Source of the DNA: Escherichia coli | GTDB lineage: Bacteria > Pseudomonadota > Gammaproteobacteria > Enterobacterales > Enterobacteriaceae | Reading direction: 5' to 3' (one strand) | Assembly (NCBI RefSeq): GCF_001677475.2 | Contig: NZ_CP015229.1 | DNA length: 64,000 nt | Part shown: piece after piece, positions 44,401 through 47,400 of the stretch | How the letters are laid out: every line of letters begins with the position of its first letter | Numbering within the stretch: the stretch's first letter is position 1 | Position numbers: made by a program

Positions 44401-47400
44401 ATATCTTCTTCTGTCTTGCCACAGAAGAACAGAAAATCGGGCTTTTGCGCCTGAATATTGCGGAGAAAAAGCATGGCCGGGAATGACCGCGAGCCAATTG
44501 GACGCAAAGGGAAACCGACGCGTCCGGTCAAACAAAAGGTAAGCCGTCGTCGTTACGAAGATGACGATTACGACGATTATGATGACTATGAGGATGAAGA
44601 ACCGATGCCGCGCAAAGGTAAGGGCAAAGGCAAAGGGCGTAAGCCTCGTGGCAAACGCGGCTGGCTATGGCTGCTGTTAAAACTGGCTATCGTTTTTGCC
44701 GTGCTGATCGCCATTTACGGCGTTTATCTCGATCAAAAAATTCGCAGCCGCATTGATGGCAAGGTCTGGCAACTGCCTGCGGCAGTTTATGGCCGAATGG
44801 TCAACCTTGAGCCAGATATGACCATCAGCAAGAACGAGATGGTGAAGCTGCTGGAGGCAACACAGTATCGTCAGGTGTCGAAAATGACCCGTCCTGGCGA
44901 ATTTACCGTGCAGGCCAACAGCATTGAGATGATTCGCCGTCCGTTTGATTTCCCGGACAGTAAAGAAGGGCAGGTGCGTGCGCGTCTGACCTTTGATGGC
45001 GATCATCTGGCGACGATCGTCAATATGGAGAACAACCGTCAGTTCGGTTTCTTCCGTCTTGATCCGCGTCTGATCACCATGATCTCCTCGCCAAACGGTG
45101 AGCAGCGTTTGTTTGTGCCGCGCAGTGGTTTCCCTGATTTGCTGGTGGATACTTTGCTGGCGACAGAAGACCGCCATTTCTACGAGCATGATGGGATCAG
45201 TCTCTACTCCATCGGACGTGCGGTGCTGGCAAACCTGACCGCAGGTCGCACGGTGCAGGGTGCGAGTACGCTGACGCAACAGCTGGTGAAAAACCTGTTC
45301 CTCTCCAGCGAGCGCTCTTACTGGCGTAAAGCGAATGAAGCCTACATGGCGCTGATCATGGACGCGCGTTACAGCAAAGACCGTATTCTTGAGCTGTATA
45401 TGAACGAGGTGTATCTCGGTCAGAGCGGCGACAACGAAATCCGCGGCTTCCCGCTGGCGAGCTTGTATTACTTTGGTCGCCCGGTAGAAGAATTGAGCCT
45501 CGATCAGCAGGCGCTGTTAGTCGGTATGGTGAAAGGGGCGTCCATCTACAACCCGTGGCGTAACCCGAAACTGGCGCTGGAGCGACGTAATCTGGTGCTG
45601 CGTTTGCTACAACAACAGCAGATTATCGATGGTGAACTGTATGAAATGCTCAGCGCGCGTCCTCTGGGCGTACAGCCGCGCGGTGGGGTAATCTCTCCAC
45701 AGCCAGCCTTTATGCAACTGGTGCGTCAGGAGCTGCAGGCGAAATTAGGCGATAAGGTAAAAGATCTCTCCGGCGTGAAGATCTTCACTACCTTTGACTC
45801 GGTGGCCCAGGACGCGGCAGAAAAAGCCGCCGTGGAAGGCATTCCGGCACTGAAGAAACAGCGTAAGCTGAGCGATCTGGAAACCGCGATTGTGGTCGTC
45901 GACCGCTTTAGTGGTGAAGTTCGTGCGATGGTCGGAGGTTCTGAGCCGCAGTTTGCGGGCTACAACCGTGCGATGCAGGCGCGTCGTTCGATTGGTTCCC
46001 TTGCAAAACCAGCGACTTATCTGACTGCCTTAAGCCAGCCGAAAATCTATCGCCTGAACACGTGGATTGCGGATGCGCCAATCGCGCTGCGTCAGCCGAA
46101 TGGCCAGGTCTGGTCACCGCAGAACGATGATCGTCGTTATAGCGAAAGTGGCAGAGTGATGCTGGTGGATGCGTTGACCCGTTCGATGAACGTGCCGACG
46201 GTAAATCTGGGGATGGCGCTGGGGCTGCCTGCGGTTACGGAGACCTGGATCAAACTGGGCGTGCCGAAAGATCAGTTGCATCCGGTTCCGGCGATGCTGC
46301 TGGGGGCGTTGAACTTAACGCCAATCGAAGTGGCGCAGGCATTCCAGACCATCGCCAGCGGCGGTAACCGTGCACCGCTTTCTGCGCTGCGTTCGGTAAT
46401 CGCGGAAGATGGCAAAGTGCTGTATCAGAGCTTCCCGCAGGCGGAACGCGCGGTTCCGGCGCAGGCGGCGTATCTGACACTATGGACCATGCAGCAGGTT
46501 GTACAACGCGGTACGGGTCGTCAGCTTGGGGCGAAATACCCGAACCTGCATCTGGCAGGGAAAACAGGGACTACCAACAATAACGTAGATACCTGGTTTG
46601 CGGGCATTGACGGCAGCACGGTGACCATCACCTGGGTAGGCCGTGATAACAACCAGCCGACCAAACTGTATGGAGCCAGCGGGGCAATGTCGATTTATCA
46701 GCGTTATCTGGCTAACCAGACGCCAACACCGCTGAATCTTGTTCCGCCAGAAGATATTGCAGATATGGGCGTGGACTACGACGGCAACTTTGTTTGCAGC
46801 GGTGGCATGCGTGTCTTGCCGGTCTGGACCAGCGATCCGCAATCGCTATGCCAGCAGAGTGAGATGCAGCAGCAGCCGTCAGGCAATCCGTTTGATCAGT
46901 CTTCTCAGCCGCAGCAACAGCCGCAACAGCAACCTGCTCAGCAAGAGCAGAAAGACAGCGACGGTGTAGCCGGTTGGATCAAGGATATGTTTGGTAGTAA
47001 TTAACGTCTAAGCGTGACATACCGGATGGCGAGTAGCCATCCGGTAAAATAACATCCCACCCAAAGTATTAACCCTTTCTTTTCATCTGGTTGTTTATTA
47101 ACCCTTCAGGAACGCTCAGATTGCGTACCGCTTGCGAACCCGCCAGCGTTTCGAATATTATCTTATCTTTATAATAATCATTCTCGTTTACGTTATCATT
47201 CACTTTACATCAGAGATATACCAATGGCGCGTTCCAAAACTGCTCAGCCAAAACACTCACTGCGTAAAATCGCAGTTGTAGTAGCCACAGCGGTTAGCGG
47301 CATGTCTGTTTATGCACAGGCAGCGGTTGAACCGAAAGAAGATACTATCACCGTTACCGCTGCACCTGCGCCGCAAGAAAGCGCATGGGGGCCTGCTGCA

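Follow-up and report, generated by a model that had tools for sequence, protein, structure and literature searches.

The penicillin-binding protein (PBP) PBP1B, encoded by mrcB, is a major cell wall synthase of Escherichia coli and a target of beta-lactams. It is made as two isoforms, alpha and gamma, of which the latter starts 46 codons downstream of the former in strain K-12 (Kato 1984, Broome-Smith 1985, and Chalut 2001, as cited in PMC13423804), and western blots show the two forms as bands of 94.2 and 88.9 kDa (PMC13423804). It is alpha and not gamma that shows enrichment and higher activity at midcell and the division site, and the 2026 study that reported this gave the tail-dependent long isoform a role in fortifying that site (PMC13423804, Nat Microbiol 2026). 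Recruitment of alpha probably proceeds via the first residues of the protein (R6 and P8-R11), which are predicted to contact FtsA; an R6E mutant was affected in localization and in peptide-fusion assays, and the N-terminus of PBP1B is predicted to be disordered (PMC13423804). With Ribo-RET, peaks are seen at both mrcB starts in E. coli (10.1101/520783). Both starts are also detected by this method in Salmonella, where peptides of the long-form extension were found, and where a basic and then an acidic stretch have already been described within this extension (PMC11005335). Here, we compare with these descriptions the cytoplasmic tail of PBP1B encoded in a stretch of 64,000 nucleotides from E. 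coli (assembly GCF_001677475.2, contig NZ_CP015229.1), referred to as the window throughout, in which an earlier reading of the sequence (the original prediction) had pointed out a highly charged, repetitive N-terminus.

The tail as such is already known, as the Pfam family PF14812 and the recent functional work cover it. The reading that we favor, with high confidence, is that of a disordered PBP1B tail of three charge blocks, with two translation starts, recruitment specific to alpha, a ribosome-binding site for gamma written into the codons of the acidic block, and rare length alleles produced by slippage. What we add to the known picture is minor: a census of tail-length alleles in E. coli, the constraint on tail length across the family, and the conservation of the internal start, which is sometimes GTG, together with its ribosome-binding string.

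Architecture of the PBP1B tail

The open reading frame (ORF) at 44473-47004 of the window, on the plus strand like all tail features given below, is mrcB (ponB) and encodes the alpha isoform of PBP1B, with 843 residues plus a stop codon. Its first ATG is at 44473, its stop is reached at 47004, and a GGAG Shine-Dalgarno string for this long start can be read from the sequence at 44462-44465, 7 nt before the ATG. Two peptides of 16 residues each had been quoted from the tail in the original prediction, and both were recovered exactly on translation of this frame.

Three charge blocks precede the transmembrane helix. The first, residues 1-27 with a net charge of +8, consists of a conserved N-terminal peptide present in alpha only (residues 1-14; 44473-44514) and a first basic stretch (residues 15-27; 44515-44553). 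The N-terminal peptide is identical to that of K-12, including R6, P8, I9, G10, and R11, and the window protein would, judged from its sequence, carry the same peptide that was described for K-12. The second block is an acidic run of Asp, Glu, and Tyr residues (residues 28-43; 44554-44601) with a net charge of -12, and the third spans residues 44-62, with a net charge of +10. Within the latter begins a basic run of Gly, Lys, and Arg next to the membrane (residues 48-63; 44614-44661), which, by translation and charge count, is common to both isoforms. The helix follows at residues 64-86 (44662-44730), starting with W64, as assigned from hydrophobicity, from aligned PBP1B structures, and from the match to PF14812 (PBP1_TM). 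This profile, which describes a tail and a single helix, matches residues 1-78 over positions 1-85 of its 85, with 87 bits against a cutoff of 27.8.

The acidic run contains 12 Asp or Glu residues in 16 positions, a value that none of 20,000 shuffles of the protein reached (maximum 10), and for which the binomial expectation is ~2e-6 per protein. The basic run contains 15 Lys, Arg, or Gly residues in 16, which was likewise reached in none of 20,000 shuffles (maximum 13), and no other long ORF in the window matched the value of either run. The acidic run had been said to be directly followed by the basic run ahead of the helix. Their order is as claimed, but four residues, P-M-P-R, lie in between, and the Met among them is the start of gamma.

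On the cytoplasmic side, W64 is adjoined by the Lys/Arg-rich segment of residues 44-62, which is the sequence pattern of the positive-inside rule; under this general rule, such flanks have a topogenic role. The chains of PBP1B for which structures have been solved begin at residues 52-57, and because all solved structures begin at residue 52 or later, none of them has ever shown the acidic run.

A mechanism can be proposed from this layout. Alpha would be started at 44473 and gamma at the ATG at 44605, both on the same mRNA; the output of two proteins from one mRNA rests on the literature for K-12 and Salmonella. Alpha alone would have the N-terminal peptide and the acidic run, and FtsA would probably bring it to the division site. 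The acidic run may act as a flexible spacer or tether, which is repelled by the anionic inner leaflet and holds the FtsA-binding peptide off the membrane. The Gly/Lys/Arg run, which both isoforms would need, may serve as a positive-inside topology signal and as a segment for lipid contact.

The internal start and its ribosome-binding string

The start of gamma in the window is the ATG at 44605-44607, encoding Met45 (Met46 in K-12), as assigned from the literature and from conservation. This Met lies exactly between the acidic and the basic run; the acidic run is therefore part of alpha, and gamma starts immediately ahead of the Lys-Gly (KG) repeats. The relevance of the charged region to the PBP1B isoforms, as originally suggested, is thereby supported, with the acidic run confined to alpha (PMC13423804; 10.1101/520783; PMC11005335). 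In frame and upstream of the helix, the window thus has both sequence elements typical of two isoforms, the internal start and a Shine-Dalgarno-like string, GAGG, which is located at 44590-44593 in the codons of Glu40 and Asp41, 11 nt upstream of the internal start. A crude scan of 44250-44750 for promoters and terminators returned nothing, giving no support for a separate gamma promoter, and a scan of 43500-45500 against Rfam gave no match at E ≤ 1.

The region was compared among species-representative genomes of 80 Enterobacteriaceae, together with short N-terminal fragments from a protein search. The internal start codon is ATG in 70 of the 80 species, GTG (Val) in nine, and neither in one. 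GTG is found in two species of Silvania, three of Leclercia, Kosakonia cowanii, Klebsiella pneumoniae, a Klebsiella metagenome-assembled genome, and Superficieibacter, and GTG is likewise the codon in five additional sequences with Val, taken from metagenomes and genomes. Other replacements of Met that are reachable in a single step (Ile, Thr, Leu, Lys, and Arg) were not seen at this position in the 80 species, which fits retention of a start codon.

A GAGG string occurs at most 24 nt upstream of the internal start in 76 of 79 species, with a spacing of 11 nt in 65. It is formed from the last acidic codons (GAG GAT), where codon choice differs by position: Glu is encoded by GAG at codon -5 in 67 of 72 species, but by GAA at -3 in 57 of 67 and at -2 in 54 of 64. 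For Asp further upstream, GAT and GAC are used interchangeably. Lineages in which GAGG is missing at -5 have it at -3 (Buttiauxella, Kosakonia, Tenebrionibacter, and Superficieibacter), with the exception of Buttiauxella gaviniae, which has none. For the window, mRNA fold prediction leaves the GAGG region free of pairing, with 44576-44601 unpaired in both the minimum-energy and the centroid fold, and the fold energy around the internal start is ordinary (z -1.14).

We read these patterns as indicating that the 3' end of the acidic run doubles as the ribosome-binding site of gamma, and that it has probably been selected as such across the family. A further step would be that this selected, dual-coding end sets the output of gamma, which would then be a conserved and regulated product and not a peculiarity of E. 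coli, and that alleles differing by one codon slightly alter the FtsA-dependent recruitment of alpha, in reach or in strength. We put this combined proposal forward tentatively, leaning slightly against its being correct in full.

The single species with neither ATG nor GTG at the internal start is Pseudescherichia vulneris (L081, locus 601-790), which reads DDAPAPRR at this point. A Met occurs within its acidic block instead (DEEMDDAYDEDD), and gamma may have been lost or its start may have moved.

Length variation and competing readings

An alignment of the window with four E. coli genomes contained two indels. The window and strain 7/2 are one GAT (Asp) short of K-12 (GATGACGATGAT versus GATGACGAT), at 44560-44571, where the window has GAT GAC GAT TAC and K-12 has GAT GAC GAT GAT TAC. 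Strain N24 is one GGCAAA (Lys-Gly) short, which aligns with the perfect two-unit repeat GGCAAA GGCAAA at 44623-44634 of the window. Alleles were then counted in 5,424 complete E. coli genomes, using queries of less than 100 nt, for which the band of at least 99% identity amounts to an exact match. In the acidic run, the K-12 allele (DDDD) was exact in 5,115 genomes and present at K-12 length with at most one single-nucleotide polymorphism in 5,229, and the window allele (DDD) was exact in 151, with an upper bound of 194 for its length, giving shares of ~96% and ~3%. One genome, that of strain CFS3292, showed a loss of 9 nt (TACGACGAT, one Tyr-Asp-Asp unit). In the basic run, 4xKG was found in 5,281 genomes (~97%) and 3xKG in 143 (~2.6%; 132 of them exact). 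Of expanded alleles, two were queried, a synthetic DDDDD and a synthetic 5xKG, and both were absent from all 5,424 genomes.

Every tail indel is a single unit and a multiple of three nucleotides. The lost GAT and the lost GGCAAA are each one of two identical adjacent copies (GATGAT and GGCAAAGGCAAA), the 9-nt loss sits between near-identical GATTAY repeats, and no tail indel in E. coli falls between the internal GAGG and the internal ATG. These positions point to rare in-frame replication slippage, at adjacent identical units or near-identical flanking repeats, as the origin of the minor alleles, that of the window included. Tail-length variation in E. coli is rare and conservative, unlike that of a contingency locus. 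The original prediction that the length of the repeats could vary between strains thus came true in the comparison of the mrcB 5' region, where strains do differ in repeat length, but the instability that it implied was overstated, as the variants are rare and in-frame. A literature search on mrcB indels or tandem repeats returned nothing on the tail.

A single clone as the source of 3xKG was ruled out. From the strain names MCJCHV-1 and MS10858 we had suspected this clone to be ST1193, which the list of carriers did not bear out: it includes O2:H6, O16:H6, and O84:H7 strains as well as wildlife isolates.

All 80 species share one plan, in which the N-terminal peptide is followed by a basic stretch, an Asp/Glu/Tyr block, P-(M/V)-P-R-K, a Gly/Lys/Arg block, and the helix. 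The three-block plan is also found in fragments from Yersinia, Serratia, and Arsenophonus. Both the motif MAG(N/D)DREPIGRK(G/R)(K/R) at residues 1-14 and a GGAG located 6-8 nt before the upstream ATG are present in 80 of 80 species. The tail measures 57-67 residues, with a mode of 62 residues in 39 of the 80 species, and the acidic block 10-19, with a mode of 16 in 47 species and a median net charge of -13; in Yersinia- and Serratia-type sequences, from more distant Enterobacterales, it reaches up to 26 residues. The flanking basic blocks carry +7 to +10 each. Closely related species differ by single Asp codons (e.g., DDD, DDDD, and DDDDDD in Citrobacter), 3xKG occurs in other genera and 4xKG was seen in Escherichia, and Asp and Glu are swapped between genera with the charge retained. 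Two to four Tyr residues lie inside the acidic block in 77 of the 80 species. Across the family, tail length drifts by single units around a preferred value and is constrained.

Two genomes titled E. coli, which are separate GTDB species representatives (L016 and L017), have further variants of the acidic run, and both have 3xKG, so that the deep lineages of Escherichia are not uniform in their tail alleles.

That the two runs are encoded by short nucleotide repeats, as originally claimed, is true in a weak sense only. Tandem Repeats Finder reported a sole array, GCAAAG x4.2 at 44612-44636 (score 36, 78% matches), and did not call the acidic run; a second repeat search returned a unit of 17 nt with 76% identity. 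Perfect tandem tracts are no longer than GGCAAAGGCAAAGG (44623-44636, 14 nt) and, within the acidic run, ~7 nt, and they are short because GAT/GAC, TAT/TAC, AAA/AAG, and GGT/GGC/GGG alternate. A test of this codon alternation as avoidance of perfect DNA repeats, for which codon frequencies were assumed, gave a weak result, with P values of 0.025 and 0.10 for the acidic runs of K-12 and the window, respectively, and of 0.73 for the KG repeats.

With these data, four other explanations can be weighed. If the repeats formed a hypermutable contingency locus, changes in length would switch or tune PBP1B. Both runs do have length alleles, located at duplicated units or flanked by near-identical short repeats, and the length of the acidic run differs between genera. 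The repeats are short and imperfect, however, with a longest perfect tract of 14 nt and one weak array outside the acidic run, and all indels are in-frame and of a single unit. Minor alleles reach at most ~3.6% of the genomes each, while the major alleles account for ~96% and ~97% and the two expanded alleles queried are absent; the acidic block of 16 residues in 47 of the 80 species further implies a length constraint. The listed carriers of 3xKG span several serotypes and hosts, which would fit an inherited lineage polymorphism. Altogether, we consider a contingency locus highly improbable. We give even less credence to the idea that the region upstream of Met45 is untranslated, with the internal ATG as the true start and the upstream frame as an annotation artefact. 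The internal ATG is indeed a real start with its own Shine-Dalgarno-like string, but the first 14 residues and the GGAG before the upstream ATG are conserved in every species, and every indel upstream of Met45 has a length divisible by three. Moreover, the published westerns show both forms, a Ribo-RET peak is found at the annotated start, and peptides unique to the long form are known from Salmonella.

The other two explanations accept both starts and concern the acidic run. It could have been selected mainly as RNA, as a purine-rich, poorly structured landing pad and ribosome-binding site for gamma, with the acidic protein largely as a by-product. This would account for the GAGG embedded in the last acidic codons, the position-specific preference for GAG, and the unpaired stretch at 44576-44601, and the codons for Asp, Glu, and Tyr are all GA/TA-rich. 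Synonymous constraint is confined to the last 4-5 codons, however, and upstream of these the Asp codons are free to be GAT or GAC while acidity is kept. The interchange of Asp and Glu with preserved charge points to selection at the protein level, the fold energy is not unusual, and the alpha-specific extension that holds the run has a demonstrated role as protein, all of which make selection mainly as RNA unlikely. Equally doubtful, in our estimate, is a regulatory module, in which the acidic run folds onto the basic blocks and masks the FtsA-binding peptide or the membrane-proximal run, possibly under control of Tyr phosphorylation. Blocks of opposite charge do adjoin, and the Tyr residues are kept in 77 of the 80 species, but acidic and basic charge do not covary, and a literature search linked MrcB to no phosphotyrosine, its single match being unrelated.

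Several points also weigh against the reading that we prefer, that of a disordered three-block tail with two starts and a dual-coding end of the acidic run. The gap of 11 nt between GAGG and ATG exceeds the usual optimum, which would make for a modest ribosome-binding site. A Val that arises from Met by one change must begin as GTG, so that the use of GTG may partly reflect recency, and the codon and GTG statistics ignore the shared ancestry of the 80 species. The allele counts in E. coli are inferred from BLAST identity bands and not from per-genome alignments. The charge of the acidic block is uncorrelated with that of the flanking basic blocks (rho 0.12, p 0.6), by which charge balancing is rejected. 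Finally, the words acidic, charged, and linker are not used in PMC13423804, in which the acidic run is not discussed.

Genomic setting and relation to known systems

The charged region had been attributed to the cytoplasmic tail of PBP1B, and this assignment was confirmed by several lines of evidence. A 381-nt query from the 5' end of the gene found a single matching place, labelled mrcB in every match listed, in 5,424 of 5,426 complete E. coli genomes. The gene is in its orthologous position, with hrpB upstream, ending 93 nt before it, and fhuA downstream within a 10-kb match. In addition to PF14812, Pfam matches over their cutoffs were obtained for PF14814 (UB2H; 89.3 bits), PF00912 (Transgly; 190 bits), and PF00905 (Transpeptidase; 86.7 bits), which is the domain order of a class A PBP, with UB2H between the anchor and the glycosyltransferase. 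The PBP1B chains 3VMA, 3FWL, and 5FGZ in the PDB match the window protein at E = 0, an identical protein of 843 residues is already recorded under E. coli accessions, on 31 contigs, and the PF14812 mark is also found on homologs of other Enterobacterales.

Around the gene, the best identity of the 10 kb at 40000-50000 among the 5,424 complete genomes is just 98.1%, despite the exact PBP1B protein on record; fhuA may be the site where this divergence concentrates. Three of the 5,424 mrcB matches are on records labelled as plasmids and two E. coli genomes have no match, possibly reflecting mislabelled replicons or true deletions of mrcB. The intergenic region between hrpB and mrcB contains a perfect 9-bp inverted repeat at 44406-44429 (TTCTTCTGT-cttgcc-ACAGAAGAA). 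A second hairpin (CGGGCU...GCGCCUG) comes next, ~40 nt ahead of the start of mrcB. Neither of these hairpins was called a terminator, and the fold energy of the leader is ordinary (z -0.98).

Another low-complexity region of PBP1B, rich in Gln and Pro, is located at the periplasmic C-terminus (residues 794-826; 46852-46950). In a Shigella flexneri PBP1B of the same cluster, of 840 residues, this stretch has one QQQP unit fewer, and the C-terminus therefore also varies by repeat units; a paper on phage evolution reports a PBP1B frameshift at Q817. Residues 799-842 (46867-46998) give a weak Pfam match to FtsA_C (E 3.6e-4; 21.9 bits, below the cutoff of 27.4), which is probably driven by composition and is curious given the proposed link to FtsA at the opposite end of the protein. 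Elsewhere in the window, a minus-strand ORF at 8931-10688 (585 residues), between lpdA-like and acnB-like ORFs, contains an Asp/His run, DWDDDDHDHHHHDDDDYHHHDGGH, at 9714-9785, the only other strongly acidic stretch of 16 residues among the long ORFs of the 64 kb. The ORF presumably resembles yacH, and the run could be a metal-binding low-complexity run.

Our additions may be of use in the design of constructs that make alpha only or gamma only, or in asking whether other enterics make two isoforms. The closest described system is PBP1B of E. coli K-12 itself, with the same gene, neighbors, domain order, and tail architecture, and the same internal start between the two runs. The K-12 protein has 844 residues to the 843 of the window, which has DDD instead of DDDD, the gamma Met at 45 instead of 46, and a few substitutions elsewhere. 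The family PF14812 describes the tail and helix region found in the window, without a difference of substance, and assigns no function to it.

More distant systems share single properties with this tail. The C-terminal linker and peptide of FtsZ, which we cite purely as an analogy, likewise combine a short conserved peptide with a disordered tether that varies in length. The tether of PBP1B differs from it by its strong acidity and by its anchorage to a membrane helix. The two are further connected in that the PBP1B peptide is predicted to bind the site on FtsA that takes the FtsZ peptide (PMC13423804). In Gram-positive class A PBPs with GpsB-binding tails, a comparison made in the same work (PMC13423804), a short conserved cytoplasmic N-terminal peptide also directs the protein to the division site, but the sequence in PBP1B is unrelated and its probable partner is FtsA, not GpsB. 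With regard to the two starts, infB and clpB resemble mrcB in that one mRNA is translated from two in-frame sites, both preceded by a Shine-Dalgarno-like string of their own; the three are listed together on the basis of Ribo-RET, which detects both starts (10.1101/520783). What sets mrcB apart is that codons of a low-complexity acidic run make up its internal string, and that its products differ only by a disordered tail of 44-45 residues.

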